Counted from the first letter of the stretch, positions 15,577 to 64,000 are shown. The stretch is 64,000 bases of DNA from an uncultured Prevotellaceae bacterium (GCA_947165675.1 CAMVBJ010000002.1:45570-109569), one strand, 5' to 3'. Numbers and translations are program-made. Notes: generated from the letters alone by a model not told the origin.

Positions 15577-15831
15577 GGCTGCAAAGATACTGCTTGTCGG
15601 CGTTATGGCAAAAAAATATGAAGAAAAACTATGGTAGGGTCGTGTGATGCATGATTCAGAAACAAGGACTATTGATGGGCGATTACCAGGGCGGCTACAC
15701 GATTAGGCGGCCTCATGTCGTTTCTGGCAAATCGTCGGATTTAAAACAAGGGGTAAGCCATCATGGAGGTGACTTGTTAACAAGTGCGAAAAATGCTGCC
15801 CTTTTGGTTTGGTCAGATAATAATTATTGTG

Positions 15832-15839
15832 TATATTTG
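15832..15839 (+). promoter_or_regulatory. -7 promoter (TATATTTG) of the nuo-atp run
   Basis: TAnnTTTG with a TTTG -33 element at 15808-15811, 20 bp upstream. Confidence 0.65.
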
Positions 15840-15973
15840 CACCGCATTTTGGGGCGTCGCTGCTGCAATTGTTCCCGTCTGTGGGCGTAAGTGATTGGGC
15901 AGTAGGGGCTTTAATGTGTTGTTATTAACTAACCTGCCAAAAATTAGAACAAACAATAGATCAACTTCGTTTT

Positions 15974-16348
15974 ATGGATTCATCAATTTTCGGAGTACAG
16001 AGCACGACTCTTGCTATCACAGCAGCTTTGACTGGTGTGTTGCTTGTAGTCGGCGCCCTGGTTATTGCGTGGCTGATCGGCCCGCGTAGTTATACTAAGA
16101 AGAAAGGCGAGCCCTTCGAGTGCGGTATTCCCACCCGTGGTGATTCGATGGCCCAGTATCATGTGGGCTATTATCTGTTTGCCATCCTGTTCCTGATGTT
16201 TGACGTGGAGACTGTATTCCTGTTCCCGTGGGCAACCATCTGCAAGGGTATCGGCAGCCAGGCTCTGCTTGCTGTGGGCACTTTCCTCGTTATTCTGGTT
16301 TTAGGTCTGGCTTATGCCTGGAAGAAAGGAGCGTTGAGATGGAAGTGA
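15974..16348 (+). CDS. nuoA: NADH-quinone oxidoreductase subunit A
   Basis: KGEPFECG, YYLFAILFLMFDVE, AWKKGALRWK. Confidence 0.96.
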   Translation: MDSSIFGVQSTTLAITAALTGVLLVVGALVIAWLIGPRSYTKKKGEPFECGIPTRGDSMAQYHVGYYLFAILFLMFDVETVFLFPWATICKGIGSQALLAVGTFLVILVLGLAYAWKKGALRWK

Positions 16349-16947
16349 AAATCAAGTCGATGAAGCATGAAGACTTCAAGGACAATGAGTATATCGACAA
16401 TCTTGTTGAGCAACTGCGTGCCGGTGGCACCAATATCATCGTTGGCAAGCTGGATCAGTTGATGAATTGGGGCGTAAGTAACTCACTGTGGCCGTTGTGC
16501 TTCGGTACGAGTTGCTGTGCTATCGAGTTCATGTGCCTGGGTGCTGCCCGCTATGATATGGCTCGTTACGGTTTTGAGGTGGCTCGTAATAGCCCCCGCC
16601 AGGCAGACTACATCATGTGCCAGGGAACTATTAACTATCGTATGGCTCCCGCATTGAAGCGCCTGTATGAGCAAATGGCCGAACCCAAGTATGTCATTGC
16701 ATGTGGCTCCTGCACCGTGAGCGGTGGCCCGTTTAAGAACAGCTATTGTGTGGTCAAGGGTGTTGACGAGATTATTCCCGTTGACGTTTATCTGCCCGGT
16801 TGCCCACCGCGTCCCGAGGCTTTCTTCTATGCCTTGATGCAGTTGCAGCGCAAGATCAAGGTGCAGAAGTACTTTGGCGGTGTTAACCGCAAGGAAAAGC
16901 TGGAACTCAAGTATGATGGCCAAGCCCTCCAGGAGGAAACCAAGTAA
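16339..16947 (+). CDS. nuoB: NADH-quinone oxidoreductase subunit B
   Basis: GTSCCAIE, SPRQAD, MAEPKYVIACGSC, VDVYLPGCPPRPE; start MEVKIK overlaps the nuoA end. Confidence 0.96.
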   Translation: MEVKIKSMKHEDFKDNEYIDNLVEQLRAGGTNIIVGKLDQLMNWGVSNSLWPLCFGTSCCAIEFMCLGAARYDMARYGFEVARNSPRQADYIMCQGTINYRMAPALKRLYEQMAEPKYVIACGSCTVSGGPFKNSYCVVKGVDEIIPVDVYLPGCPPRPEAFFYALMQLQRKIKVQKYFGGVNRKEKLELKYDGQALQEETK

Positions 16948-16973
16948 TCAAACCGACAAAAATCCATTGAAAT

Positions 16974-18608
16974 ATGGCAGAAATAGAGAACAAAATCACT
17001 CAGTTGTGCCCCCAGGCGCAGGTTGACACCACTGGCGAGTTCCCGCTGGTTACCGTCGATGACGCGCAGTGGCACGACTTGGCACGCGCCCTGAAGACCC
17101 AGATGCACTATGACGTGTTGAGCGCCGTCGTGGGCATGGACTGGACCGAAGCGCTCGGCTGTGTTTACTACCTTACCAACACGAGCACCCATGAACTGCT
17201 TCATGTCAAGGTGGCAACCACCGACCGCCAAAACCCCCGCCTCCATTCAGTCGTGGATCTGTGGCCTGTGGCCAATTTCCAGGAGCGTGAGGTGTATGAC
17301 TTCTTCGGCATCGTGTTTATCGGTCACCCTGACATGCGTCGCATGTTCTTGCGTACCGACTGGGTGGGTTATCCCCTGCGCAAGGACTATGACCCCGCCA
17401 GTAACCCCCTGCGCCTCGAGGATGAGACCAATGAGGATTACACCTGCCGCTGGGTCGAGGACGAGAACGGCAAGGTCAAGAAAATCGACGGTAAGGTGTT
17501 TGAGGACGACGAGTATGTCATCAATGTGGGTCCCCAGCACCCGTCCACCCATGGTGTGATGCGTTACCGTGCCAGCCTCGATGGCGAGATTGTCAAGAAG
17601 ATTGACGTCGTCAGCGGATATATCCATCGCGGAATTGAGAAGATTTGTGAGGACCTGACTTATCCCCAGATGCTCCTGTACACCGAACGCATGGACTACA
17701 TGGCAGCCCATATCAACCGCCACTGCATGTGCATGTGTGTTGAGAAGGCGCTGGGTATAGAGGTGCCTCACCGTGCCGAACTCATCCGCTTGATGATGGA
17801 TGAGCTCATGCGTCTGTCGTCCCACTTGTTGAGCTATGGTTGCTTGACCATGGACCAGGGTGCCACGACCGCATTCTTCTACGGCTTCCGTGAGAGGGAA
17901 TTGATTTATGATATCTTTGACCGCACCTGTGGCGCCCGCATGTCGATGAGCTATAGCTGCATCGGTGGTGTGGTGGCCGACGTTCATGAAGACTTTATCA
18001 AGGATGTGCGTCATGCTTGTGACGTCATCGAGAAGAACCTGGCCGAGTACCATAAGCTCTTCACGGGCAACGTCATTGCCGTGAACCGCATGACGGGTGT
18101 GGGTCTCCTCTCCAAGCAAGACGCCATCGACTATGATATTACCGGTCCGTCGGGCCGCGCCAGCGGTTGGCACTGCGACGTGCGCAAGACCAATCCTTAT
18201 TCTCTCTACAACGAGTTCGACTTCGACGAGGTCGTTTATGAGAACGGTGACTCAATGGACCGCTACATGGTCCGCATGAAGGAGATGGAGCAGTGCATCA
18301 AGATCCTGCGCCAGGCCTGTGATAAACTTGAGGCCGAGGGCGTTCAGGGTGAGTACTGCGCACCCAAGGTTCCCAAGGTGATGAAATTACCTGTTGGCCA
18401 CTGGTACCAGCAAGTAGAGGCCAGCCGTGGTGCCTTCGGCGTGTATATCGAGAGTGACGGTGGCACCAAGCCTGTCCGTGTACACTTCCAGTCGCCCTGC
18501 TTCAACCTGATTGGCGTGGTTGACTTGACGTGTCGCGACAACATGATTGCCGACTTGATTACCATCACGGCATCGCTCGACTTCGTTATCCCCGATATCG
18601 ATCGCTAA
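16974..18608 (+). CDS. nuoD: NADH-quinone oxidoreductase fused subunit C/D
   Basis: NuoC EREVYDFFGIVFIGHPDMRR plus NuoD NVGPQHPSTHGV, GYIHRGIEK, DIDR C-terminus. Confidence 0.96.
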   Translation: MAEIENKITQLCPQAQVDTTGEFPLVTVDDAQWHDLARALKTQMHYDVLSAVVGMDWTEALGCVYYLTNTSTHELLHVKVATTDRQNPRLHSVVDLWPVANFQEREVYDFFGIVFIGHPDMRRMFLRTDWVGYPLRKDYDPASNPLRLEDETNEDYTCRWVEDENGKVKKIDGKVFEDDEYVINVGPQHPSTHGVMRYRASLDGEIVKKIDVVSGYIHRGIEKICEDLTYPQMLLYTERMDYMAAHINRHCMCMCVEKALGIEVPHRAELIRLMMDELMRLSSHLLSYGCLTMDQGATTAFFYGFRERELIYDIFDRTCGARMSMSYSCIGGVVADVHEDFIKDVRHACDVIEKNLAEYHKLFTGNVIAVNRMTGVGLLSKQDAIDYDITGPSGRASGWHCDVRKTNPYSLYNEFDFDEVVYENGDSMDRYMVRMKEMEQCIKILRQACDKLEAEGVQGEYCAPKVPKVMKLPVGHWYQQVEASRGAFGVYIESDGGTKPVRVHFQSPCFNLIGVVDLTCRDNMIADLITITASLDFVIPDIDR

Positions 18609-18654
18609 GAGTTAATTTGCAAGAACAAAACCACTAAAGAAAAGATTAAGAGAT

Positions 18655-19737
18655 ATGTTTGACTTCGGAATAGTCACGAAATGGTTGGATGACCTGCTCA
18701 ACAGCGTGATGCCTGGTTGGCTCACCACGACAATCGAGTGCGTACTGGTGGCCGTCGGCTTGCTGGTCGCTTATTCGCTCATCGCCATGTTCTACATCTT
18801 CTACGAGCGCAAGGTCTGTGGTTGGATTCAGTGTCGCCTGGGCCCGATGCGTGTGGGTAAATGGGGTTTGCTCCAGGTGTTTGCCGATGTGATTAAGATT
18901 CTCCAGAAGGAGTTGATTACCTTGTGGAACACCGACAAGTTCCTCTTCAAGTTGGCTCCCTATCTGGTGCTGATTGCATCGATGTTGACATTTGCTTGCC
19001 TGCCTTGGGGCAAGGGTTTGCAGATTGTTGACATGAACATCGGTGTGTTCTTTATCGTCGCTGTGTCATCTATCGGTGTGCTGGGTATCCTGCTCGCTGG
19101 ATGGGCAAGTAACAGCAAGTACACCCTGATTGGCGCTATGCGTAGTGGCGCCCAGATGATCAGCTACGAGTTGTCGTGCGGTATCTCGATCTTGACGATC
19201 GTGTGCTTGGCTGGCACGATGTCGATCACTGGCATCGTCGAGGCCCAGGCCGACGGCTGGTTCCTGTTCAAGGGACACCTGCCCGCTATCCTCGCGTTCA
19301 TTATATATATGATCGCTGCCAACGCCGAGAACAACCGTGGCCCGTTTGACCTCCCTGAGGCTGAGCACGAGTTGACTGCTGGTTACCACACCGAGTATTC
19401 AGGTATTCACTTCGGATTCTTTTATCTGGCCGAGTACCTGAACCTGTTCATCGTGTCGGGCATCGCCACCTTGCTCTTCCTGGGTGGCTGGATGCCGCTG
19501 CACATTCCTGGTTGGGAAGGCTTCAACAACGTGATGGACTACATTCCCAGTGTAGTGTGGTTCCTGGGCAAGGCCTTCTTCATCACCTTCATCTTCTTCT
19601 GGATCCGCTGGTCGTTCCCCCGCGTGCGTATTGACCAGATGCTGGCTCTCGAGTGGCGTTACCTGATGCCTATCGGTCTGGTTAACCTCGTCGTGATGGC
19701 CATCATCGTGACCCAGGGTTGGTACTTCGGTGCTTGA
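18655..19737 (+). CDS. nuoH: NADH-quinone oxidoreductase subunit H
   Basis: [52 protein letters not shown]. Confidence 0.97.
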
Positions 19738-19751
19738 TGTTTATCGAGTGA

Positions 19752-21305
<1,554 letters not shown>

Positions 21306-21344
21306 TCATGACTGTATTATTTTATATACATTAATTAATATAAC

Positions 21345-21578
21345 ATGACACTCAAAATCATATCGGCTGAACAGATCGAGTTTGAAGGCACTGTGGAACA
21401 GGTGACCTTGCCTGGCGCAATGGGTCAGTTCCAGGTGCTCAAGAACCATGCCGCGCTCATAGCCGCCCTCAAGGCCGGCACGATGAGCTATGTGGCCGAT
21501 GGCAACACTGTGGAGCGTGAGATTCACGGCGGTGTGGCCGATGTAAAAGATAATGTGGTGTCGGTTTGCCTCTATTAA
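21345..21578 (+). CDS. atpC: F1 ATP synthase epsilon subunit (N-terminal domain only)
   Basis: VTLPGAMGQFQVLKNHAALIAAL beta-sandwich; 77 aa. Confidence 0.92.
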   Translation: MTLKIISAEQIEFEGTVEQVTLPGAMGQFQVLKNHAALIAALKAGTMSYVADGNTVEREIHGGVADVKDNVVSVCLY

Positions 21579-21587
21579 CGCAAGACT

Positions 21588-22658
21588 ATGAAGAAAGCAA
21601 TCACAGCAATCATCGCGGTCGCTATCATCGCTCTCATGGCGTTTGGATATAACCAAGCGGCGGGTCATCGTGCCCACAGTGACGAGCAGGCCGAGATGAA
21701 TCCCCAGGAAATCATCTTTGAGCACCTGGGTGACTCCTATGGCTGGGAGGTGCCCTTCTCGCATAGCACGCGCATCCCGTTACCCGTCATCGTGCGCGCC
21801 CAGGATGGCTCGTGGCATGTGTTCATGTCAAGCCAGCTTGAGGGCGGTGCCCAGTATGACGGCTTCCAGATTGCCAAAGGTGGAGACTACAATAATAAGG
21901 TGGTCCAGATTTTGCCCGATGGTAGCCAGTTCCGTCCCGTGGATCTCTCCATCACCAAGAATGTGGCAGGCATTTTCATTGCCGCCCTGCTGGTGGTTCT
22001 GATGGTCTTTAAGGTCAAGAATTGGTATAAGAAAAACGGAATGAAGGCACCGCGCCGCTTTACCGCAGCACTCGAAGTGGTGGTGGACTTTGTCTATACC
22101 GACACGATTCGCCCCATCATGGGTAAGGAGGCGCCCAAGTATGGTCCCTACCTGTTGACGGTATTCTTCTTTATTCTGACGATGAACCTGTTAGGTCTTA
22201 TCGTTATCTTCCCAGGTGGAGCTAACCTGACTGGAAATCTGGCCGTGACAGCGGTACTTGCCGTCATCACGTTCCTGGTGACCAATTTGACAGGAACCAA
22301 GCACTACTGGAAAGAGATGTTGTGGCCTGAAGTGCCCACCGCGCTCAAGTGCCCAGTGCCCTTGATGCAGGTGATTGAGATCTTTGGCATTTTCACTAAG
22401 CCCATCGCGTTGATGATCCGTCTGTTTGCTAACATGATGGGTGGTCACATGGTGGTGATCGTGTTCATGCTGTTGATCTTCATCTTCGGTAGCATGTTCG
22501 GTACGGCTGTGGGTGCAGCGATGACGCCACTATCGGTGGCATTATCGTTGTTCATGCTGTTGCTTGACGTGCTTGTAAGCTTTATCCAAGCCTATGTGTT
22601 CACTATCCTTTCCACCATGTTCATCTCGATGGCCCATGTGCACGCTCACGCTGAGTGA
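21588..22658 (+). CDS. atpB: Fo ATP synthase subunit a
   Basis: KPIALMIRLFANMMGGH, FIQAYVFTILS; N-terminal signal-like extension. Confidence 0.96.
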   Translation: MKKAITAIIAVAIIALMAFGYNQAAGHRAHSDEQAEMNPQEIIFEHLGDSYGWEVPFSHSTRIPLPVIVRAQDGSWHVFMSSQLEGGAQYDGFQIAKGGDYNNKVVQILPDGSQFRPVDLSITKNVAGIFIAALLVVLMVFKVKNWYKKNGMKAPRRFTAALEVVVDFVYTDTIRPIMGKEAPKYGPYLLTVFFFILTMNLLGLIVIFPGGANLTGNLAVTAVLAVITFLVTNLTGTKHYWKEMLWPEVPTALKCPVPLMQVIEIFGIFTKPIALMIRLFANMMGGHMVVIVFMLLIFIFGSMFGTAVGAAMTPLSVALSLFMLLLDVLVSFIQAYVFTILSTMFISMAHVHAHAE

Positions 22659-22743
22659 TGCACGGTTCCCTGCACAGATTGACAACATGGTAACCCACAA
22701 CAGATAAATGAAATATAATTAAACAAAAACAATAACAAACTAA

Positions 22744-23001
<258 letters not shown>

Positions 23002-23024
23002 TTACCCCTTAACCGGTTTACCAG

Positions 23025-23522
23025 ATGGAACTTTTTAAGCCTGAATTTGGCCTGGCATTCTGGATGTTCATCGCATTCCTGTGCTTGTTCCTCATTCTTG
23101 CCAAGTGGGCATGGCCCTTCATCATCAAGTCGATGGAAGAGCGTGCCGACCTCATTGACAAGGGTGTGGCCTATGCTCAGGAGGCAAAGTCTCAATTGGA
23201 CAATGCCAAGGCCGAGGCAGACAAGTTGATTGCCAGTGCCCGTGACGAACAGGCCGAAATCCTGCGCGAGGCAGCCAAGATGCGCAACGAGCTCATCGAG
23301 AAGGCGCGTGGCGAGGCAGCCGACGAGGCCAAGAAGGTGACCGAAGCCGCTCAAGTATCGCTTGAGCAGGCGCGCAAGGAGGCCGAGAAGCAACTGCGCA
23401 CCCAAGTGGGTGACCTGGCATTGCAGATTGCTGAGAAGGTGATCCGCAAGAACATTGCCAGTGATGATGCTCAGCGTGCGCTTGTTGACCAATATCTGAG
23501 TGAGGTTGAGACTAAAAATTAA
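23025..23522 (+). CDS. atpF: Fo ATP synthase subunit b
   Basis: N-terminal TM (FWMFIAFLCLFLILAKWAWP) followed by a charged coiled coil. Confidence 0.95.
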   Translation: MELFKPEFGLAFWMFIAFLCLFLILAKWAWPFIIKSMEERADLIDKGVAYAQEAKSQLDNAKAEADKLIASARDEQAEILREAAKMRNELIEKARGEAADEAKKVTEAAQVSLEQARKEAEKQLRTQVGDLALQIAEKVIRKNIASDDAQRALVDQYLSEVETKN

Positions 23523-23528
23523 CGTGAT

Positions 23529-24071
23529 ATGAGTGACGGACTGATTCCACGCCGATATGCTAAAGCGCTGTACAAGTACGCCGTCGAGAACGGTGACTCG
23601 CAGGAGATTTATGAGCTCTTGAAGACGCTCAGCTTCCGCTACACCGCTGTCGACCAGCTCAAGCGCGCCGTGCTCAACCCCGAAATCTCTGACGAAGCCA
23701 AGGGAGCCTATATGCTCAAGCTCATGGGCGGCAAGCCTGGCAGCTCGCTGGACAAGTTCCTGCTGCTGTGTGTGCGCAATGGCCGCGCCGAGTACTTGCA
23801 GAAGATTTCCCTCGCCTATGTCGATCTCTACCGCGAGGCTCACGAGATAGCCCATGTGGTCATTACCTCTGCCGTAGCTATGCCAGAGGCCGAGGTCAAC
23901 GCAATTATCGACATCGTGAAGAAGCGCTTGGGTGCGATGACACTTGAAATTGAGCAGGTCCTTGACAAGGAACTCATCGGCGGCTTTACCGTCAAGATCA
24001 ATGGACTGGTGCTTGACGCGTCGGTAAAGAGAGAATTGAACGAATTGCGATTGCAATTACAGAAGAAATAA
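23529..24071 (+). CDS. atpH: F1 ATP synthase delta subunit
   Basis: RRYAKALY, ELIGGFTVKI...LDASV. Confidence 0.95.
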   Translation: MSDGLIPRRYAKALYKYAVENGDSQEIYELLKTLSFRYTAVDQLKRAVLNPEISDEAKGAYMLKLMGGKPGSSLDKFLLLCVRNGRAEYLQKISLAYVDLYREAHEIAHVVITSAVAMPEAEVNAIIDIVKKRLGAMTLEIEQVLDKELIGGFTVKINGLVLDASVKRELNELRLQLQKK

Positions 24072-24096
24072 ATGAATTCGATTTTTTAAAGAAGAG

Positions 24097-25692
24097 ATGA
24101 TTAATCCCAGTGAAATATCTGATATACTGAAACAGCAGCTCGTCGATGACATCGCCAAGCGTCAGGTGGCCTTTGAGGAAGAAGGCACCGTCCTGGAGGT
24201 GGGTGACGGAGTGGCTCATGCCTACGGTCTGCACAACGTTGAGGCCAACGAGCTTGTGCAGTTCGAGAATGGCGTGACTGGCGTTGCCATGAACCTGGAG
24301 GAGAGTGACGTGGGTATCATCCTGCTTGATGAGGTTGACACCGTGACCGAGAACATGAAGGTTCGTCGCACGGGTGAAATCGCCTCCATCGAGGTGGGCG
24401 AGGGACTGCTGGGCCGTGTAATCAACGTTCTGGCAAAGCCCATTGACGGCAAGGGACCCATCGACGGTAAGCGCCTGCGCCTGCCGCTGGAGCGCAAGGC
24501 TCCCGGTGTCATCTTCCGTCAGCCGGTGAACCAGCCGTTGCAGACAGGTCTCAAGGCCATCGACTCGATGATTCCCATCGGCCGTGGCCAGCGTGAGCTC
24601 ATCATCGGTGACCGCCAGATTGGCAAGACCGCTATTGCGGTGGACACCATCATCAACCAGCGTGCCAACTACGAGGCTGGCAAGCCGGTATATTGCATCT
24701 ATGTCGCCATCGGTCAGAAGGCTTCGACCGTTGCCGCTCTTGTCAACAAGCTTGAGGAGAGTGGGGCACTGCCTTATACCATTGTGGTAGCAGCAACCGC
24801 TGCCGACTCGGCTTCGATGCGTTACTATGCACCGTTTGCTGGTGCAGCCATCGGCGAGTACTTCCGCGACACTGGTCGTGATGCCCTCGTGATTTACGAT
24901 GACTTGTCCAAGCACGCTGTCGCTTATCGTGAGATCTCGCTGATCCTCAAGCGCCCCTCGGGCCGTGAGGCTTATCCTGGCGATATCTTCTATCTGCACA
25001 GCCGCTTGCTTGAGCGTGCTGCCAAAATTAACGAGAATCAGGCCGTGGCCAGCGTGATGAATGACCTGCCCGAGCCCCTCAAGCCCATCGTTAAGGGTGG
25101 TGGCTCATTGACGGCACTCCCCATCATCGAGACCCAGGCTGGCGACGTGAGCGCTTACATCCCCACCAATGTGATTTCCATTACCGACGGTCAGATTTAC
25201 CTTGAGTCGGCACTGTTCAACTCGGGTATCCGCCCTGCCGTCAATGTGGGTATCTCGGTTTCCCGTGTGGGTGGTAATGCTCAGATCAAGTGTATGAAGA
25301 AGGTAGCAGGTACCCTCAAGATCGCTCAGGCGCAGTACCGTGAGCTTGAGGCCTTCACCAAGTTTGGTGGTGACATCGATCCCGTTACTGCCCGTACTAT
25401 CGATACCGGCCGCAAGAACGAGCGCTTGCTCGTGCAGCCCCAGTACACCCCCATGCAGGTCGAGGAGCAGGTCGCCATCATCTACTGTGGCGTGAATGGC
25501 CTGCTGCGTGACGTGCCCCTGGACAAGGTGGGCGAGTTTGAGAAACAGTTCATCCAGTACCTGCGTGGCAAGCACCAGCAGGATGTCCTTGACGTGCTGC
25601 GCTCGGGTAAGATTGATGACGATGTCATGGCTAAGCTCAAAGCCGCAGCCGCCGATGTCGCAATGCGCTATACCCAGGGTGCTGCCAGTTAA
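24097..25692 (+). CDS. atpA: F1 ATP synthase alpha subunit
   Basis: [46 protein letters not shown]. Confidence 0.99.
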
Positions 25693-25716
25693 TCCAGCAA
25701 TCATTAAGTTCGCAAG

Positions 25717-26601
25717 ATGTCAACATTAAGAGAACTCAAGACGCGAATAGGCTCGGTAGCCTCGACTCAGAAGACGACGAGTGCCATGAAGATGATCTCG
25801 TCGTCCAAGATGCGCAAGGCAACCGGCCAGTTGCAACGCCTGTCGCCCTACCGCCACATGGTGCAGCACGTGATCAGCCACCTGCTGGTGACCGACCAGC
25901 AGTTTGACTCACCGCTCATCGCCGACCGTGATGTGCAGCGTGTTGCCCTCGTGGTCTTCGGTAGCGACGACGGCTTGTGCGGAGGATTCAATGTCAACAT
26001 CTTCAAGCAGTTGCTCGTTAGCATCAATGAGGTGCGTGAGCAGTACGGTAAGCAGGTGGGTATCACCATTGTGCCCGTTGGCAAGAAGATGACCAAGGCA
26101 GTCGAGAAGATTGCTGGCAAGGAAATTCAGATGGAGCGTGTGGCTCTCAATACCCGCAGTGGCAGTGAGGACCTGTATGCCTTCACTGACTTGATGAAGA
26201 CCCGCTTCCTGGAGCGCACGTTTGACCGCGTGGAGATGCTCTATATGCATTTCATCTCCACAGGCAAGCAGGTGTTCACCCGCGAGCAGTTACTGCCCGT
26301 GAGCTATCAGGGACTTGCCGACAATGTTGACCCCCGCGCCGCCAACAGCCCTTGCTTGTTTGAACCCGATGCCAATACCATTTTCAACACCGTGTTGCCG
26401 CTGCACATCAAGTCGATGCTCCAGGATGTGTTCATCCAGAGCGCGGCCAGTGAGCAGAGCGCACGCGTGATGGCGATGCAGGCTGCGAGCGACAATGCCA
26501 AGGAGCTGCTTGACGAGTTGCAGCTGGAGTACAACAAACTGCGTCAGCAGGGCATCACCACCGAGCTGCTCGATATCCTGGGTGGCCAGGTGGAACGCTA
26601 A
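25717..26601 (+). CDS. atpG: F1 ATP synthase gamma subunit
   Basis: TQKTTSAMKMIS, GLCGGFN, SARVMAMQAASDNA, YNKLRQQGITTEL. Confidence 0.98.
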   Translation: MSTLRELKTRIGSVASTQKTTSAMKMISSSKMRKATGQLQRLSPYRHMVQHVISHLLVTDQQFDSPLIADRDVQRVALVVFGSDDGLCGGFNVNIFKQLLVSINEVREQYGKQVGITIVPVGKKMTKAVEKIAGKEIQMERVALNTRSGSEDLYAFTDLMKTRFLERTFDRVEMLYMHFISTGKQVFTREQLLPVSYQGLADNVDPRAANSPCLFEPDANTIFNTVLPLHIKSMLQDVFIQSAASEQSARVMAMQAASDNAKELLDELQLEYNKLRQQGITTELLDILGGQVER

Positions 26602-26638
26602 GCGAAATGTTAAGATAATAAGAGAATACATTTATATT

Positions 26639-27190
26639 ATGAACATTAAGGAGTATTTCGTCTCAATCTTTAAGGGCTTTTACAGCCTGATTAAGGGCAT
26701 GGAAGTGACCGGTAAGGAGCTGGTGACTCCCAAGGTGACCGAGCAGTATCCCGAGAACCGCGCCGAGCTTCACATCCCGGAGCGCTTCAGGGCAACACTG
26801 GAGTTCATCTATGATGACAATGGTCGCCACAAGTGCATCGCCTGCGGTAGCTGCGAGCGCAACTGTCCTAACCAGACCATCAGCATCACCAAGCGCATGG
26901 TGGAACAGCCTGATGGCAAGAAGAAAATGAAACTCGACAAGTACATGTACGACTTGGGTAGTTGCACTTTCTGTGGTCTGTGTGTACAGGTGTGTCCTAC
27001 CAATGCTATCCGCTTCAGCAACGACTTTGAGCAGGCGGTATTCACCCGCGAGAAGCTCCACAAGCAGCTCAACTACCTGCCCGAGAAGGACGACGCTCCC
27101 GCTCCCGCACCTGCTGCCAAACCGGCAGCTGCTGCCAAGCCCGCTGCTGACGAGACCAAACAAGAATCTCAAGAAAACAAAGAACAATAA
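26639..27190 (+). CDS. nuoI: NADH-quinone oxidoreductase subunit I
   Basis: Two 4Fe-4S motifs CIACGSCERNCP and CTFCGLCVQVCP; TEQYPE; Pro/Ala/Lys tail. Start placed at MNIKEY. Confidence 0.95.
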   Translation: MNIKEYFVSIFKGFYSLIKGMEVTGKELVTPKVTEQYPENRAELHIPERFRATLEFIYDDNGRHKCIACGSCERNCPNQTISITKRMVEQPDGKKKMKLDKYMYDLGSCTFCGLCVQVCPTNAIRFSNDFEQAVFTREKLHKQLNYLPEKDDAPAPAPAAKPAAAAKPAADETKQESQENKEQ

Positions 27191-27705
27191 TGGAATCAGT
27201 AGGTAACATCATTTTGTACTTTATCGTTGCTATCGCCATCATCGTGTTCTCGGTGTTGACGGTTACCACGCGCAGGATTCTGCGCTCAGCAACCTATCTG
27301 CTGTTTGTGCTTTTTGCAACAGCCATCATCTACTTCCAGATGGATTACCAGTTCCTGGGAGCAGTGCAGATTGCCGTCTATGCTGGTGGTATTCTGGTGC
27401 TGTTTGTGTTTGCTATCATGCTTACACAGCAGCCTGGTAAGAGTGCCGAGGCACTTACCACACAGCGTCGCTGGCTGGGTCTGTCGGCAGCATTGGCAGG
27501 CGTTGCCGTTTGTGGCTACGGACTGTTCAGTTATGCCGGTCTTGCCGGTCGCCTGCTCAGCAGTGACGTGGACGTCAATATGGAAAAGATTGGCCAGTTC
27601 TTGTTGAGTACCGACAAGTTTGGCTATCTGTTGCCTTTTGAGGCCATCAGTGTGTTGTTATTGGCTTGTATCATTGGAGGTGTGGTTATTGCCCGTCGCC
27701 GCTAA
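27190..27705 (+). CDS. nuoJ: NADH-quinone oxidoreductase subunit J
   Basis: AVQIAVYAGGILVLFVFAIML, LLPFEAIS. Confidence 0.96.
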   Translation: MESVGNIILYFIVAIAIIVFSVLTVTTRRILRSATYLLFVLFATAIIYFQMDYQFLGAVQIAVYAGGILVLFVFAIMLTQQPGKSAEALTTQRRWLGLSAALAGVAVCGYGLFSYAGLAGRLLSSDVDVNMEKIGQFLLSTDKFGYLLPFEAISVLLLACIIGGVVIARRR

Positions 27706-27720
27706 ACATTTGTGAAGATT

Positions 27721-28032
27721 ATGGATTTGACACTGTTTATGTATCTTATTCCCAGCCTGATCATGTTTGGCTGCGGTGTTTACGGCTTCATCACTCGCAA
27801 GAACATGATTGCGATTATGATTTCACTCGAGTTGATGCTCAACTCGGTGGATATCAACTTTGTGGTGTTTAACCGTTACTTGTTCCCTGGTCAGATGGAC
27901 GGCATGTTCTTCTCGCTGTTTGCGATTGCAATCGCGGCTGCCGAGACTGCTCTTGCCCTTGCCATCATTATCAATGTGTTCCGCATTGCCAAGAACGTGG
28001 ACATCAACCAAATCACTAAACTGAAATTCTAA
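27721..28032 (+). CDS. nuoK: NADH-quinone oxidoreductase subunit K
   Basis: SLELMLNSV, AIAAAETALALAI. Confidence 0.96.
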   Translation: MDLTLFMYLIPSLIMFGCGVYGFITRKNMIAIMISLELMLNSVDINFVVFNRYLFPGQMDGMFFSLFAIAIAAAETALALAIIINVFRIAKNVDINQITKLKF

Positions 28033-28037
28033 CGATT

Positions 28038-30035
28038 ATGCCATTAAGTTTAGCAATAGTAGTTGTAGCATTACCCCTGCTGATGTTCCTGTTCCTGGGA
28101 CTCGTCGGGGTGAAAATGGGTAGAAAAATCACGGGTGTGATTGGGGTACTGGCCATGCTGGTTGATACCGTCCTTGCCTATGGTGTGGCGCTGACCTACT
28201 TCTTCGGCAGTGGTCAGGGTCAGATGGTGGATGGTGTTCGTCAGGCTGTGGTTGTCGCTAATCCCGCCTGGTTGTCGTTTACCGACACGCTGGTGGTGCG
28301 CATGGGCGTCCTGGTTGACCCCATCGCCGCAATGATGCTGGTGGTCATCACCACGGTATCGTTGATGGTGCACCTCTATAGCCTCGGGTACATGAGTGAC
28401 CACGATGGTAACGCCGAGAAGGGTTTCCAGCGTTACTATGCTTTCCTGGCTCTGTTCACGTTCTCGATGTTGGGCCTGGTTGTAGCTACCAACATTTTCC
28501 AGATTTTCATCTTCTTTGAGATGGTAGGTCTTTCGTCCTATCTGCTCATCGGTTTCTATTATTCAACTCCTGCCGCCAACCATGCTAATAAGAAGGCCTT
28601 TATCGTGACTCGTCTGGCCGACTTGTTCTTCTTGTTAGGTATCATGATTCTGAGCTACTACACGGGTACGTTCGACTTCGACAAGCTGGTCTTCGGACCC
28701 ACGATGTCGGGTAGCCTTGAGACCGCTCAGAGCGCCATCAGTACTGCTGGAGGCGCCACCTTCATGGGTTGCTCGGTAATGGCCTGGGCGTTGACTTTCA
28801 TCTTCATTGGCGGTGCCGGTAAGAGTGCTATGTACCCGTTGCACATCTGGCTGCCCGATGCGATGGAGGGTCCAACTCCCGTGTCGGCGTTGATCCACGC
28901 AGCTACCATGGTTGTGGCTGGTGTGTTCCTGGTGGCAAGGCTCTTCCCGCTGTATGTCCTTGTACAGGGTGCGATGAACATTATTCTGGTCGTTGGCGCG
29001 TTCACGGCATTCTATGCAGCCGCCATCGCCTGCACCCAGAGCGACATCAAGCGTGCGCTGGCTTTCTCGACCATTTCCCAGATTGCGTTCATGATGACGT
29101 CGCTTGCCGTTAGCTCTAACAACAATTCGCTCATTGAGATTCACGAGGGCTACGGTCTGGGTTACATGGCATCCATGTTCCACCTGTTCACCCACGCAAT
29201 GTTCAAGGCGTTGCTTTTCCTGTGTGCCGGTGCTATCATTCATGCCGTTCACAGCAATGAGAATGACAAGATGCACGGCTTGCACAAGTACATGCCCATC
29301 ACCAGCATCGCCTTCTTGATCGGTTGCTTGGCCATTGCGGGTATTCCCCCGTTTGCCGGCTTCTGGTCTAAGGACGAAATCCTCGTCGCCGCCTACCAGC
29401 GTGGTCTGGGTTGGGGCCTGTGGATGTCGATGGTGGCTTGCATGACAGCCTTCTACATGTTCCGCATCTACTACCTCATCTTCTTCTGGAAGAAACACGA
29501 GGTACACGATCCCCATCATGCTCCCAAGGATCAGCCCTGGACGATGACGCTGCCGCTCATCATCCTCGCGTGCATCTCGGTTGTGGCTGGCTTCGTGCCC
29601 TTCCACAATCTGGTGACCTGGGATGGTCATCATCTGCACACCGCTCTCGACTGGACGGTGGCTGGTTCGAGCGTTGTTGTAGCCCTTGTGGGTATTGGCC
29701 TGGCAACAGTGATGTACTACAAGGAGAACCCGCTGCCCGAGCGCATGGCCAATGCGATGCGTGGCCTGTGGACCGCCAGCTACAAGCGCTTCTACATGGA
29801 TGAGCTCTATCAGTTCATCACCCACAAGGTGATTTTCCAGGCCATCTGTGTGCCCATCGCTTGGTTTGACCGTCACATCATTGACGGCTTCATGAACTTG
29901 CTGGCCGACCTTACTCAGTCTGTATCGTTCTCGATACGTCGACTGCAGTCTGGTAGCATCCAGGGTTATGTGTATGTTTACATGATTGGTGCCCTGCTGC
30001 TGGCAGCCATCACCATGATATGTGTAATCTTGTAA
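28038..30035 (+). CDS. nuoL: NADH-quinone oxidoreductase subunit L
   Basis: GKSAMYPLHIWLPDAMEGPTPVSALIHAATMV, FHLFTHAMFKALLFL. Confidence 0.97.
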   Translation: MPLSLAIVVVALPLLMFLFLGLVGVKMGRKITGVIGVLAMLVDTVLAYGVALTYFFGSGQGQMVDGVRQAVVVANPAWLSFTDTLVVRMGVLVDPIAAMMLVVITTVSLMVHLYSLGYMSDHDGNAEKGFQRYYAFLALFTFSMLGLVVATNIFQIFIFFEMVGLSSYLLIGFYYSTPAANHANKKAFIVTRLADLFFLLGIMILSYYTGTFDFDKLVFGPTMSGSLETAQSAISTAGGATFMGCSVMAWALTFIFIGGAGKSAMYPLHIWLPDAMEGPTPVSALIHAATMVVAGVFLVARLFPLYVLVQGAMNIILVVGAFTAFYAAAIACTQSDIKRALAFSTISQIAFMMTSLAVSSNNNSLIEIHEGYGLGYMASMFHLFTHAMFKALLFLCAGAIIHAVHSNENDKMHGLHKYMPITSIAFLIGCLAIAGIPPFAGFWSKDEILVAAYQRGLGWGLWMSMVACMTAFYMFRIYYLIFFWKKHEVHDPHHAPKDQPWTMTLPLIILACISVVAGFVPFHNLVTWDGHHLHTALDWTVAGSSVVVALVGIGLATVMYYKENPLPERMANAMRGLWTASYKRFYMDELYQFITHKVIFQAICVPIAWFDRHIIDGFMNLLADLTQSVSFSIRRLQSGSIQGYVYVYMIGALLLAAITMICVIL

Positions 30036-30068
30036 TCAACGGTCTTGACAAAATAGAAAGGATATACA

Positions 30069-31598
30069 ATGGAAATTTTCAATAATATACTGATTTACTT
30101 TGTAATCGTGCCTCTGCTGACGCTTGGAGGCCTGGCCCTGTGCAGCAACCGCGGCATCAAGGCCATTAGGACCGTTGCCGTTGTCGGCGCCAGTGTGCTC
30201 ATGGTACTTGCCATCGCACTGGTCAAGATGTTCCTTGCTGCCCGTGGCGCCGGGGTCACCGATGAAATGATCCTGCGCAGCGACGTGATGTGGTATGCCC
30301 CGTTCAATGTCCACTTGGCCCTGGGCGTTGACGGCGTGAGCGTTGTCATGATATTGTTGTCGGCATTCATCGTGTTTGCCGGCGTATTCGCCTCGTGGAA
30401 GATGAATCCGCTGCCCAAGCAGTTCTTCATGTGGTTCTTCCTGTTGTCCACGGGTGTGTTTGGCTTCTTTATCTCGATTGACCTGTTCACGATGTTTATG
30501 TTCTATGAGGTCGCTCTGATTCCCATGTACCTGTTGATTGGTGTTTGGGGTAGTGGCAACAAGAACTATAGCGCCATGAAGCTGACCTTGATGCTGATGG
30601 GTGGCTCTGCCTTCCTGATGCTTGGCTTGATTGGTATTTACTTCCATTCAGCCCCCGAGGGTCAGCCCCTGACGATGAACATCCTGGACATTGCCCATAA
30701 CAATGCTATTCCCCACAGCTGGCAGTACGTGCTGTTCCCGCTGACGTTTGTCGGCTTCGGCGTGCTGGGTGCCATGTTCCCCTTCCACACATGGTCTCCT
30801 GATGGTCATGCTTCGGCGCCCACAGCGGTGTCGATGCTCCACGCCGGTGTACTGATGAAGCTCGGTGGATATGGCTGCTTCCGCATCGCCATCTATCTGA
30901 TGCCTTTTGCAGCCAATGAGTTGGCATGGATTTTCCTGCTGTTGACGGGCTTCAGTATCGTCTATGGTGCTTTGAGCGCCTGTGTACAGACCGACCTCAA
31001 GTACATCAATGCTTACTCGTCGGTTAGCCACTGTGGTATGGTACTGTTTGCCATCTTGATGTTCAACACCACAGCGATGACGGGTGCTGTGCTCCAGATG
31101 CTCTCTCACGGTCTGATGACGGCCTTGTTCTTTGCCTTGATTGGTATGATCTACGGTCGCACTCACACCCGTGACATCCGCGACATGGGTGGTATGATGC
31201 ACATCATGCCTTATCTGGGCGTGGGCTATGTGATTGCCGGTTTGGCATCGTTGGGTCTGCCGGGTCTGAGTGGTTTCGCTGCCGAGATGACCATCTTCTT
31301 CGGCTCGTTCCAGCACACCGACACCTTCCACCGCGTGCTCACCATCATGGCGACCACCTCGATTGTTGTGACGGCTGTCTATATCCTGCGCGTTGTTGCC
31401 AAGTTGCTCTTTGGCGAGGTACAGGATGAGCACCACCGCTCCCTCACCGACGCCAGCTGGGAGGAGCGCCTCTCGACGGCCACGCTGATCCTGGCTGTGG
31501 CTGCCATCGGTTGCTTCCCCAACTTCTTTGTGAACATCATCAGCAGCAGCTTTGAGCCCGTTGTTAAGGCCTTGCAGGCTGCCCTGCCCATGATTTAA
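30069..31598 (+). CDS. nuoM: NADH-quinone oxidoreductase subunit M
   Basis: FYEVALIPMY, PFHTWSPDGHASAPT, AYSSVSH, SLGLPGLSGFAAE. Confidence 0.97.
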   Translation: MEIFNNILIYFVIVPLLTLGGLALCSNRGIKAIRTVAVVGASVLMVLAIALVKMFLAARGAGVTDEMILRSDVMWYAPFNVHLALGVDGVSVVMILLSAFIVFAGVFASWKMNPLPKQFFMWFFLLSTGVFGFFISIDLFTMFMFYEVALIPMYLLIGVWGSGNKNYSAMKLTLMLMGGSAFLMLGLIGIYFHSAPEGQPLTMNILDIAHNNAIPHSWQYVLFPLTFVGFGVLGAMFPFHTWSPDGHASAPTAVSMLHAGVLMKLGGYGCFRIAIYLMPFAANELAWIFLLLTGFSIVYGALSACVQTDLKYINAYSSVSHCGMVLFAILMFNTTAMTGAVLQMLSHGLMTALFFALIGMIYGRTHTRDIRDMGGMMHIMPYLGVGYVIAGLASLGLPGLSGFAAEMTIFFGSFQHTDTFHRVLTIMATTSIVVTAVYILRVVAKLLFGEVQDEHHRSLTDASWEERLSTATLILAVAAIGCFPNFFVNIISSSFEPVVKALQAALPMI

Positions 31599-31637
31599 TG
31601 AAAGTGTTTAACCTGATAAAAATAGCATAATATAGAT

Positions 31638-33107
31638 ATGATGGATTATTCACAATTCTTGTTGATGCCGCAGGAGATAGGCCTGTTGCTGGTTTTCCTG
31701 CTTGTTTTCATCTATGACACTTTCATGCCCGAGCGCACTCAGCGTTATATGCCCGTGTTCACGGTCATCATGATGGCGCTCTACACGATATACTGCTTCT
31801 GCTGCCCTGCGGCAGTGGGCGAGGCCTTTGGTGGCATGTTTGAGACGAACGCCCCCACCTGGGTGATGAAGAACATCCTCAACGTGGGTGTCGTGCTGGT
31901 ACTCTTGCAGGCTGTGAAGTGGACCAATGGCGACTTTGTGAGCGTTCGCCGTGGCGAGTTCTACGAGTTGACCTTGTTGACGTTGCTGGGCATGTTTCTC
32001 ATGATTTCGGCACGTCACTTCCTGTTGTTCGTCATCGGTCTGGAGACCGCGTCACTGCCCATCGCTGCCCTGGCTGCGTTTGAGAAGCGCTACTACGAGT
32101 CTCACGAGGCTGCCGCCAAGTATATCTTCACCGCGATTTTCTCATCAGCGATTTTCCTGCTCGGCATCTCGTTCGTCTATGGTATGAGCGGTTCGCTCTA
32201 CTTCAAGGACATTGCCGTTTCACTCATTGGTAATCATTCGGCATTGCTGATCGCCTCGCTGGCATTTGTCATCGCTGGTGTGGGCTTCAAGCTGTCGCTT
32301 GTTCCCTTCCACTTGTGGACTGCCGACGTCTATCAGGGTGCTCCCACTGCTGTGACCAGCTATCTGTCGGTCATCAGCAAGGGTGCCGCTGCGTTCTCGT
32401 TCCTGGTGATCCTGGTGCAGGTGTTTGGTTCGGCCTACTCTCAAGTGTGGGAGTGGATGCTCTATGCCATCATCATCCTGACCATCACGTTAGGCAACCT
32501 GTTCGCTGTCCGTCAGCGCAACCTCAAGCGCTTCCTGGCCTTCTCGTCGATTTCCCAGGCTGGTTACATCATGTTGGGCGTGATTGCCGTCAACGTGATG
32601 GGTATGTCCTCGATGATCTATTACGTGCTGGTTTACATCTTCAGCAACCTGGCCGCCTTCGGTGTGATTGCTGCTATCGAGCGCCAGACGGGCAAGGTCA
32701 CCATGGACGATTACAACGGCTTGTTCAAGACCAATCCCTGGCTGGCCTTCACGATGATGCTTGCCATGTTCTCGCTGGGTGGTATTCCGCCGTTTGCGGG
32801 CTTCTTCAGCAAGTTCTTCATCTTTGTGGGCGCTTGCCATCAGGGTTCGGTTGCCATCTATGCCCTGGTTCTCATTGCACTGGTTAACACCATCATCTCG
32901 CTGTACTACTACCTGCTGGTGGTCAAGGCGATGTTCATCCGTCAGGATGAGTGCGTGATTCCCAAGTTCCAGAGCCATTGGACCGAGCGTATCGGCATGA
33001 TCCTGTGCGTGCTGGGCATCATCTTCATCGGCCTTGTATCTTGCATTTATGCAAGCATCAACGGTGCGGTCGATGCCATCGGCGCCATGTTTGCAGCCGT
33101 ACAGTGA
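31638..33107 (+). CDS. nuoN: NADH-quinone oxidoreductase subunit N
   Basis: FKLSLVPFHLWTADVYQGAPT, KRFLAFSSISQAGY, SLGGIPPFAGFFSKF. Confidence 0.97.
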   Translation: MMDYSQFLLMPQEIGLLLVFLLVFIYDTFMPERTQRYMPVFTVIMMALYTIYCFCCPAAVGEAFGGMFETNAPTWVMKNILNVGVVLVLLQAVKWTNGDFVSVRRGEFYELTLLTLLGMFLMISARHFLLFVIGLETASLPIAALAAFEKRYYESHEAAAKYIFTAIFSSAIFLLGISFVYGMSGSLYFKDIAVSLIGNHSALLIASLAFVIAGVGFKLSLVPFHLWTADVYQGAPTAVTSYLSVISKGAAAFSFLVILVQVFGSAYSQVWEWMLYAIIILTITLGNLFAVRQRNLKRFLAFSSISQAGYIMLGVIAVNVMGMSSMIYYVLVYIFSNLAAFGVIAAIERQTGKVTMDDYNGLFKTNPWLAFTMMLAMFSLGGIPPFAGFFSKFFIFVGACHQGSVAIYALVLIALVNTIISLYYYLLVVKAMFIRQDECVIPKFQSHWTERIGMILCVLGIIFIGLVSCIYASINGAVDAIGAMFAAVQ

Positions 33108-33208
33108 TTGAAGCTTTAGGTTTAGCTGAAAACTGAAAAAAGAATACTTCTGATATCATTTAGCATAACCAAAAGACTGAAATCAGGTTTATTCATAGCA
33201 ATGATTGG

Positions 33209-33244
33209 GAGAGCATCGTGGTAGTCCACCATGCTCTCTTGTTT
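33209..33244 (+). terminator. Hairpin terminator candidate after the nuo-atp run
   Basis: GAGAGCAT / ATGCTCTC stem with inner GTGG/CCAC, followed by TTGTTT; sits between convergent genes. Confidence 0.55.
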
Positions 33245-33246
33245 CA

Positions 33247-33915
33247 TTAGTGCGGGTCGGGTGGCGTGTCCATGCGGGGATACATCGGGCGGCCGGCGGC
33301 ACGGGCCTGGGCGCGCTGCTCGGCGACCAGGCGGCAGTGCGCTTGCCACTCGGCTTGGCGCTCGGCACACTCGCGCTTCTCGATGGTGGCGGCGCGCTCG
33401 TGCATGAAGTTCTGGCGCAGTGCCATGATGATGATCATGGGGTCGATGGCACCATAGAAGCGGCCATACCTGCCAGCCTTGAAGTGGTGCAGGAACAGCA
33501 TGATCTCGCTCACCTTGAGGAAGCCGAACTCGCTGGCAATGGTGCGGGCCAGTTGCTTGAGCTGGTTCTTGTCCAGCTTCTCCTTGACACCGCAATACTC
33601 GCACAGGTCGTAGAGTTGTGGCGGCAGCCACATCGTCGCCGCCTCGTCATGATAGGCATGGCGCAGTATCACTAGGGTAGGGGCTGTGCCGAAGTAGGCC
33701 CTGTCCTTGTGCTCGGCGCAGTATTGCTGCAGCCCGGGATTCATGACGCGCATGAGGGACTCCAGGCTAGAATGGGATGACAGCAGGGCGTTGACCCTCG
33801 GCTGCAACCTCGGCGATAGCGCGGCACACTTCCTGGCGGCGGGCTTCTCGTTCAAGTTCGCGGCGTGTGACAGGGTCGGCAATAAATTCTTGACGGTTTT
33901 TACTGTGTGTTTCAT
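33247..33915 (-). CDS. Phage-type protein, DUF6633-like partner of Bacteroidales prophage replication initiators
   Basis: APTL...AY...AATMWL.PQL, LKVSEIMLFLHHFKAGRYGRFYGAIDP pattern recalled from Bacteroidales prophage replication modules; exact start uncertain because of the overlap. Confidence 0.6.
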   Translation of the reverse strand: MKHTVKTVKNLLPTLSHAANLNEKPAARKCAALSPRLQPRVNALLSSHSSLESLMRVMNPGLQQYCAEHKDRAYFGTAPTLVILRHAYHDEAATMWLPPQLYDLCEYCGVKEKLDKNQLKQLARTIASEFGFLKVSEIMLFLHHFKAGRYGRFYGAIDPMIIIMALRQNFMHERAATIEKRECAERQAEWQAHCRLVAEQRAQARAAGRPMYPRMDTPPDPH

Positions 33916-59669: not shown

Positions 59670-59856
59670 CCATTTGTAGTGGCGCTGAAACCCCATTGCG
59701 GTCCCTCGCCACCACAACAAATAAACAGGTAACCCGCTGACAATGACTACTGCGATAGTGTCCCCAGCCTTACCCCCTCCGGTCCACTAGGCTCCCCCGC
59801 CCGGTGACCCCTGGTGAATGCTTGAACGAGCACTATTATCCATCAATTATATTGTC

Positions 59857-61389: not shown

Positions 61390-61503
61390 AAAATCTCAAC
61401 TATACTATAATTGATAGCTTGAAAAGCTTGAAAGTGAATAAGTTATAGGCCAAGCGATGAACACCTACTAATAATATAGTTTAACCAAGTTGAACCACGT
61501 TTG

Positions 61504-63264: not shown

Positions 63265-63306
63265 TACATATTGATTGTCGAGAAGAGCTAAGGAATTAAT
63301 ATAACC

Positions 63307-64000
63307 ATGCAGATTGGAATCTTAACCCAACCATTGGCTAATAATTACGGAGGTATTTTACAGAATTGGGCGCTGCAACAGGCGCTCAAGCAGATGGGGC
63401 ATGCTCCGACTACAATTAATATACCATATCCACACATCGATGAAAAATGTGATTTGCCCAGGTTATGCTGGCGTTTTGTAAAACGTCTTAAAGGAGATAG
63501 GAGTATCATTTTCATTAACCCCGCAAGACAGCATAATTTTTTAAATACTCCATGCACAAACATGAGGGAATTTGTGCATGATAATATAAATGTTATACAC
63601 CTTCAGGATAAGGTGGATAGTACTTTTTGTGATAAGCATCCTGAGATAAAAGCATATATCGTGGGAAGTGATCAAGTGTGGCGGAAATCTTTTTCTCCGT
63701 TTCTGCCTAATTTTTTTCTTGATTTCACAGAGAATGTTGATGTCAAAAGAATTGCATACGGCGTTTCTTTTGGGCGAAAAGAAATGGATATCAATCAGGA
63801 TGAATCACGTTTTTACTCAGAATTAGCTTCGAGGTTTGATGCAATTTCAGTAAGAGAAGAAGATGGAAAAGAAATCTGCAAAAAACAATTAAGTTCAAAC
63901 GCATCATTGGTTATTGACCCAACTTTATTAATTGATCCAAGTGATTACTTTGATTTAATTGCAAAAGCAGAAAGCCAAGTCAAAAGCAGCAGATATGCTG
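63307..64000 (+). CDS. Polysaccharide pyruvyl transferase family protein, partial (runs off the window)
   Basis: Hand translation: MQIGILTQPLANNYGGILQNWALQ...IVGSDQVWR...IAYGVSFG...AISVREEDG...DPTLL. Confidence 0.88.
   Translation, partial: MQIGILTQPLANNYGGILQNWALQQALKQMGHAPTTINIPYPHIDEKCDLPRLCWRFVKRLKGDRSIIFINPARQHNFLNTPCTNMREFVHDNINVIHLQDKVDSTFCDKHPEIKAYIVGSDQVWRKSFSPFLPNFFLDFTENVDVKRIAYGVSFGRKEMDINQDESRFYSELASRFDAISVREEDGKEICKKQLSSNASLVIDPTLLIDPSDYFDLIAKAESQVKSSRYA

Follow-up and report, generated by a model that had tools for sequence, protein, structure and literature searches.

A complex I operon with the F1Fo ATP synthase genes nested inside it is an inherited trait of Muribaculaceae and is probably transcribed as one mRNA in a rumen clade

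We analyzed a stretch of 64,000 nucleotides (nt) of DNA deposited under the name of an uncultured Prevotellaceae bacterium (GCA_947165675.1 CAMVBJ010000002.1:45570-109569; hereafter the window, meaning this whole stretch, to which all positions refer unless a related locus is named), in which a complete set of genes for F1Fo ATP synthase (atp) lies inside the operon encoding respiratory complex I (nuo). The nested nuo::atp arrangement is an inherited trait of the family Muribaculaceae and not a peculiarity of the genome from which the window comes. We propose that in the clade of the window all 18 genes of the block are most likely carried on one mRNA of ~17.3 kilobases (kb), and we provide evidence from gene order in related genomes, from promoter and terminator signals, and from public rumen metatranscriptomes that bears on this proposal.

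The nested layout was confirmed in the window by an open reading frame (ORF) list and by Pfam and NCBIfam searches, and it matched exactly the gene order and the 68-bp and 37-bp spacers of the original prediction, which had been made from the sequence alone. Positions 15974-33107 are filled by 18 ORFs on the + strand, in the order nuoA-B-CD-H, atpD-C-B-E-F-H-A-G, nuoI-J-K-L-M-N, with intergenic distances from a 10-nt overlap up to 100 nt. The block opens with nuoA (15974-16348; PF00507, E = 1.8e-34), nuoB (16339-16947; PF01058; NF011391, 343 bits vs. a cut-off of 283), whose ATG at 16339 makes the 10-nt overlap with nuoA, a fused nuoCD (16974-18608; PF00329 and PF00346), and nuoH (18655-19737; PF00146, E = 1.4e-116). 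Across an AT-rich spacer of 68 nt (19738-19805) follow the ATP synthase genes: atpD for F1 beta (19806-21305; TIGR01039, 768 bits vs. a cut-off of 463), atpC for F1 epsilon (21345-21578; 77 amino acids, PF02823, with TIGR01216 matched at positions 2-76 of 130), atpB for Fo a (21588-22658; PF00119 on residues 130-347, and NF009953 on residues 22-355 with 206 bits, below its 460-bit cut-off), atpE for Fo c (22759-23001; PF00137), atpF for Fo b (23025-23522; PF00430), atpH for F1 delta (23529-24071; PF00213), atpA for F1 alpha (24097-25692; TIGR00962, 728 bits vs. a cut-off of 484), and atpG for F1 gamma (25717-26601; PF00231; TIGR01146, 247 bits vs. a cut-off of 194). Beyond a second spacer of 37 nt (26602-26638) the complex I genes resume with nuoI (26639-27190), which matched Fer4 families and had NuoI models as its top NCBIfam hits (e.g., TIGR01971, 106 bits, slightly below the 113-bit cut-off), and continue with nuoJ (27190-27705; PF00499), nuoK (27712-28032; PF00420), nuoL (28038-30035; NF005141, 577 bits vs. 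a cut-off of 556), nuoM (30069-31598; TIGR01972, 413 bits vs. a cut-off of 264), and nuoN (31638-33107; TIGR01770, 369 bits vs. a cut-off of 333). The distance from nuoH to nuoI is thus taken up by 6.9 kb of atp genes. The guanine-plus-cytosine (GC) fraction is even across the block (0.52-0.56), which is flanked by two genes on the - strand, one for a TonB-dependent receptor upstream and one for a DUF6633 protein downstream.

To place the locus among its relatives we scanned for NuoH, taking one genome per GTDB species, and obtained 80 loci with NuoH proteins 77-99% identical to that of the window. All belong to Muribaculaceae or Sodaliphilus-type genomes from cattle, sheep, goat, deer, buffalo, horse, pig, and human samples; nearly all are metagenome-assembled genomes (MAGs) or otherwise uncultured, and none is titled as a cultured isolate. 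The closest loci (NuoH identity 92-99%, and 96-99% for the nearest) are Muribaculaceae or Sodaliphilus MAGs, some of them labelled Prevotellaceae or Porphyromonadaceae. Judged by this NuoH identity to MAG loci, the window is from a rumen member of Muribaculaceae (Bacteroidales) that is close to Sodaliphilus. When the 18 window proteins were searched by tblastn, the order nuoA-B-CD-H-atpD-C-B-E-F-H-A-G-nuoI-J-K-L was found in 80/80 loci, as far as their contigs extend.

Outside this group the nesting is absent from the genomes compared. Among the matches listed in a NuoH homologue search (120), all were at least 77% identical except for one odd entry of 501 amino acids, and outgroups were reached via a 50%-cluster representative (P0121) that is 62% identical to the NuoH of the window. 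The outgroup loci, from a Prevotella sp. CAG:755-like genome, Alloprevotella sp. OH1205, and a Bacteroidaceae MAG (L081-L084), carry an uninterrupted nuoA-B-CD-H-I-J-K-L-M-N, and the nuo locus of Bacteroides fragilis likewise consists of ten consecutive genes, BF638R_0841-0850 (Ito et al. 2020, PMC7002350), which bears out the statement of the original prediction that nuo is uninterrupted in Bacteroides. The window has the same ten nuo genes in the same order and also lacks nuoEFG; whereas in B. fragilis and the outgroup loci nuoI begins 19-41 nt after nuoH, in the window the atp genes stand between them. In Escherichia coli, nuoA-N (~15 kb) and atpIBEFHAGDC are separate operons at different loci, rather than one nested in the other. 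The long respiratory operons of E. coli are nonetheless comparable with the locus of the window in that many subunits of a membrane complex come from one long mRNA, with a promoter before the first gene and subunit ratios set at translation.

The arrangement itself is not new, contrary to what the original prediction had supposed, because it has already been published as a family trait: F-type ATP synthase genes within the locus for complex I were reported for 26 of 30 genomes of family S24-7, or ‘Ca. Homeothermaceae’, now Muribaculaceae (Ormerod et al. 2016, Microbiome 4:36, PMC4936053), and the presence of the nested order in all 80 of our related loci also argues against novelty. The locus described in that study, as far as the excerpted text goes, is like that of the window in combining an 11-subunit complex I lacking NuoEFG with an internal F-type ATP synthase; the passage on it is one sentence long and states neither where the genes are inserted nor what spacers, promoter, or RNA data go with them. 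Our literature searches returned neither later studies of the function or transcripts of the nested locus nor a description of such nesting in any other group. To the published account we add the exact insertion point between nuoH and nuoI, evidence that the genes are co-transcribed, a promoter and leader that are conserved, and, in relatives, a candidate RNA element.

We searched the window for signals that could start or end transcription. A Bacteroidetes-type promoter was found on the + strand at 15803-15839, with TTTG at 15803-15806 and 15808-15811 (the -33 region) and TATATTTG at 15832-15839 (the -7 box), the latter lying 134 nt ahead of the nuoA ATG. Within 15400-33300 the + strand has three matches to TAnnTTTG, and TATATTTG is the only one with an upstream TTTG (~20 nt); of the remaining two, one falls within nuoCD and one overlaps the start codon of nuoH. 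Neither the nuoH-atpD nor the atpG-nuoI spacer of the window contains TAnnTTTG, and terminator-like hairpins within the block showed no excess over shuffled sequence, with none in the two junction spacers. A further scan for sigma-70 promoters and terminators gave counts near shuffle expectation, the sigma-70 promoter model being unsuited to this phylum. The 3’ end region (33105-33240, + strand) holds an imperfect hairpin (33105-33185) followed by GGUUUAUU and a strong hairpin (33207-33240) followed by UUGUUUCAUU, and its hairpins fold far better than shuffled sequences (z = -3.4). Motif and fold scans thus recovered the one promoter before nuoA, the hairpin after nuoN, and the signal-free spacers that had been predicted. 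At this same 3’ boundary, contigs from two public sequencing runs (X15 and X17) part from the window directly after the strong hairpin behind nuoN (33238-33312), and therefore synteny between strains stops at the 3’ boundary of the operon. Run X17 also differs from the window by an in-frame 9-nt insertion, CCCAAGGTG, at 18371, a strain-level indel in NuoCD.

Transcription of the block was followed in three bovine rumen metatranscriptomes from one study (X2, X3, and X4), which contain the organism at 95-99% identity. Contigs assembled from X2 cover 15904-20720, spanning the nuoH-atpD junction, 20804-24579, and 25863-28306, spanning the atpG-nuoI junction. Those from X4 cover 15858-19787, 19769-20828, and, in a single contig of 12.4 kb, 20804-33193, from atpD to the end of nuoN, and those from X3 include one at 15855-19813 and a last one ending at 33194. 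A contig from run X15, the library type of which is unrecorded, also crosses the atpG-nuoI junction (26550-28678). The RNA contigs begin at 15855, 15858, and 15904, the first two 16-19 nt and the third 65 nt past the -7 box, and end at 33193, 33194, and 33134, two of the three lying ~86 nt past the nuoN stop codon. RNA depth was near zero upstream of 15440 and downstream of 33389, while contigs from two DNA-like runs, their type unrecorded, passed the promoter region at flat depth (14800-20722 and 14800-15999); the ends of the RNA contigs therefore look like transcript ends. Two sheep RNA runs (X6 and X7) were too fragmented and added no contigs spanning the junctions.

Several points weigh against a single transcript. 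The RNA evidence consists of assembled contigs, and overlapping transcripts from unrecognized internal promoters would assemble alike. Word depth was nearly equal over the three parts of the operon (35.4, 38.5, and 37.9 in X2; 27.4, 30, and 29.5 in X4), but word depth in contigs gauges expression poorly. The start and end positions are those of contig termini. Moreover, the X3 and X4 contigs break near 19787-19813, which could mark an internal start. This break near 19790 we read as an assembly bubble, because its position matches that of a 1-nt indel variant (19784) and the X2 assembly continues across it. Taken with the contigs over both junctions, the equal word depth and the ends at the predicted places fit the original prediction of one ~17-kb transcript, and from them we infer a single RNA molecule and its exact start.

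The alternative that fares best holds that the genes are adjacent without forming one transcriptional unit, so that internal promoters (dependent on an alternative sigma factor or lying within coding sequences) or partial termination would yield separate nuoA-H, atp, and nuoI-N transcripts at differing levels. We regard it as unlikely for the clade of the window, where the two spacers carry neither promoter box nor hairpin and RNA contigs cross both junctions with nearly identical word depth on either side. It draws its support, besides the break near 19790, from more distant relatives. Spacers could be extracted for the nuoH-atpD junction in 77 loci and for the atpG-nuoI junction in 68. The former are 24-101 nt long, with 23% GC, and contain TAnnTTTG in 1 of 77. 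At the latter junction a spacer of ~35-45 nt occurs only in the clade of the window, and spacers of at least 90 nt (about 100-200), usually with a GC-rich, terminator-like hairpin followed by a T-run, are found in 27 of the 68 loci, each belonging to a more distant member of Muribaculaceae; TAnnTTTG is present in 8/68 (examples of long spacers are L042:17887-18012, L041:9695-9822, L047:18014-18188, and L063:17948-18061). Pig-gut RNA matching one of these loci, L042, includes a contig whose first position is 9 nt ahead of the nuoI start codon, and RNA depth over atp looks higher than over nuoA-H; the hairpin of the same locus is, however, read through by two RNA contigs, at a coverage too low to judge attenuation. 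Given the hairpin and box in these relatives, the single transcript is not a fixed property of Muribaculaceae, and the idea in the original prediction that pump and synthase are ‘hard-wired’ together is limited because relatives carry between atpG and nuoI a hairpin and sometimes a promoter-like box.

Comparison of the long spacers points to a structured RNA element ahead of nuoI. In 17 of the 27, a stretch of 6-9 nt in the hairpin loop is the exact complement of a site that lies 29-52 nt ahead of the nuoI start codon, and loop and site change together from locus to locus (CTATACCG/CGGTATAG, CTTTACCG/CGGTAAAG, CTATGCC/GGCATAG, CAATACCG/CGGTATTG, and GATACCGG/CCGGTATC). In an alignment made with a model of the hairpin only, 92% of the cells of the loop-to-downstream helix pair, with compensatory changes in 4 of its 8 pairs. 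This covariation suggests that the element is a pseudoknot-like RNA; five of the related loci had no match in Rfam. Neither the hairpin nor the pseudoknot-like pairing is present in the window, the clade of which either lost the element or never had it. In some lineages of Muribaculaceae the two halves of the operon may thus be uncoupled or tuned.

The clade of the window shares a conserved promoter and 5’ leader. A promoter of the form TTTG...TAnnTTTGCACCG stands 122-148 nt ahead of nuoA in most loci of the clade. In the window it is followed on the + strand by a long stem-loop at 15841-15922, at the predicted start of the transcript, which was delineated from the minimum-energy fold and a covariance model (R1), and by an unpaired motif, AACCTGCCAAAAATTA, at 15931-15946, which is nearly invariant in the clade alignment and has one exact copy in the window. 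Model R1, built from eight sequences, matched 34 sources, namely the window and 33 related loci, exactly once each and in every case ahead of nuoA. In the leader alignment, which was fitted to the model, 86% of cells pair vs. 27-49% with slid partners, compensatory changes occur in 13 of 22 pairs, and at most 1 of 500 shuffles attains any of the observed measures. Against these figures stands the fold of the window leader taken alone, which is thermodynamically ordinary (z = +0.85). Rfam gave no match in the window at the gathering threshold. In a close relative, an insertion of ~70 nt lies in the nuoA leader between AACCTGCCAAAAATTA and the start codon (L010:7095-7300). It is reasonable to suppose that the leader stem-loop, as a putative regulatory structure, stabilizes or regulates this very long mRNA. 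Both the leader stem-loop and the element ahead of nuoI are new by Rfam and literature searches, small, and unproven.

The complex I-like enzyme is represented by a complete 11-subunit set (NuoA, B, C, D, H, I, J, K, L, M, and N, with C and D fused) by Pfam and NCBIfam, and neither the locus nor the flanking ORFs searched in the window contain nuoE, nuoF, or nuoG. An 11-subunit complex I lacking NuoEFG has been reported for family S24-7 (PMC4936053). The 11-subunit enzyme of B. fragilis does not oxidize NADH, contributed no NADH:quinone activity, and is reported to use an unknown donor (Ito et al. 2020, PMC7002350).

All eight F1Fo subunits are encoded (alpha, beta, gamma, delta, epsilon, a, b, and c), and AtpD, AtpA, AtpG, AtpH, AtpF, AtpE, and AtpB exceed the cut-offs of TIGR equivalog models. 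Epsilon falls slightly under its cut-off because it consists of the N-terminal domain only. By these profile matches the atp genes encode a canonical F1Fo ATP synthase. Because beta and epsilon come first, as in the operon atpDCQRBEFAG of the alternate F1Fo enzyme (N-ATPase), we considered that enzyme as well and ruled it out: the window has atpH, and hence the delta subunit, lacks atpQ and atpR, and scores under the alt_F1F0 cut-offs. In NCBIfam, AtpD, AtpA, AtpG, AtpB, and the b and c subunits passed the canonical F0F1 cut-offs and missed the alternate ones (e.g., 561 vs. a cut-off of 752 for beta), and no extra small ORFs lie between atpC and atpB, which are 9 nt apart. A c ring that translocates Na+, of the Ilyobacter type, is marked by Gln in helix 1 and by Glu-Ser/Thr (and Tyr) in helix 2. 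This type was rejected from the AtpE sequence, in which helix 1 has no Gln and the Glu of helix 2 is followed by Gly; proton coupling is the likelier prediction for the ATP synthase of the window because its c subunit is without the Na+-binding signature. AtpB is extended at its N terminus by ~130 amino acids and is not preceded by a separate atpI. In close relatives whose other proteins are more than 90% identical, the identity of AtpB is bimodal, at ~90% and ~67%.

The order of Bacteroides-type F1Fo loci is beta-epsilon-I-a-c-b-alpha-gamma, and the C-terminal half of epsilon is reported to have been lost in Bacteroidetes and Chlorobi (Koumandou & Kossida 2014, PMC4154653). The beta-epsilon-first order is likewise on record for B. 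fragilis. The atp genes of the window resemble that type in having beta and epsilon first, then a-c-b-(delta)-alpha-gamma, and a short epsilon; they differ in being nested, where the Bacteroides-type locus is free-standing, and in having no separate atpI ORF. The cassette probably arose by relocation of the lineage’s own atp operon as a block, because it combines a Bacteroidetes-type gene order, a short epsilon, and even GC.

If the single-transcript proposal is correct, transcription would start at the one TTTG/TAnnTTTG promoter ~130 nt upstream of nuoA, and the mRNA would carry the conserved leader stem-loop at its front and terminate at the hairpins behind nuoN. The generator and the user of the proton gradient would then be switched on and off together, and how much of each is made relative to the other would still depend on post-transcriptional steps, namely translation rates and the decay of the mRNA. 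In ATP synthase, subunit ratios of 3:3:1:1:1:1:2:~10 arise from one mRNA by translational control. Co-transcription implies neither a physical unit nor the fixed stoichiometry proposed in the original prediction, the latter because subunit ratios in such operons are set at translation.

Two stronger forms of coupling would go beyond co-regulation. According to the first, the NuoEFG-less complex I and the F-ATPase would be one obligate module, perhaps co-translated and co-inserted into the membrane and possibly touching, with RNA elements tuning the pump-to-synthase ratio; if this were true, the leader stem-loop and the hairpin/pseudoknot ahead of nuoI would be the controls of that ratio, but we think it quite improbable. 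According to the second, which we hold to be slightly more doubtful still, the nested order is the mark of a pump-synthase unit, physical or obligately functional, that is co-assembled or co-localized, with the operon fixing the ratio. The nested order is indeed kept across at least 80 species, nuo and atp appear to be expressed from one promoter, and an S24-7 genome, H5, is described (PMC4936053) as lacking both complex I and ATP synthase. Joint loss is, however, expected for any contiguous block, co-transcription sets co-regulation and not protein ratios, and the structured atpG-nuoI element of relatives could uncouple the two halves. As for an assembly or binning artefact that fused two loci, the chance is negligible even though the window is apparently a metagenome-type assembly, like most of its relatives: the same junctions recur in 80 independently assembled genomes from several hosts, are crossed by independent contigs from several public runs at 95-99% identity, and belong to an arrangement already published (PMC4936053), so that we reject mis-assembly. 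One RNA contig of run X3 joins 19615-19640 (3’ nuoH) to 26741-26760 (5’ nuoI), skipping 7100 nt. As a variant lacking atp this joint was rejected, the match being 20-26 nt per side with flanks unlike the window, and it is probably chimeric or spurious.

Elsewhere in the window, a protein of 904 amino acids (35143-37857) has both leucine-rich repeats and a type I dockerin domain, an unusual pairing for a Bacteroidales genome. The region 60001-64000 has a GC fraction of 0.38-0.39 vs. ~0.52 elsewhere and includes an ORF without Pfam matches (59818-61389) and one resembling thiamine pyrophosphate enzymes (61501-63264); it may be acquired DNA.

Muribaculaceae are a dominant family of the gut and rumen, the energy metabolism of which is known chiefly by inference from genomes. 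The nested layout offers a clean and easily scored genomic marker of the family, and the locus is a natural case of a co-regulated generator and consumer of the proton gradient. The rumen metatranscriptomes indicate that the whole nuo-atp block is expressed in vivo, which bears on the role of the NuoEFG-less complex I of Bacteroidales.

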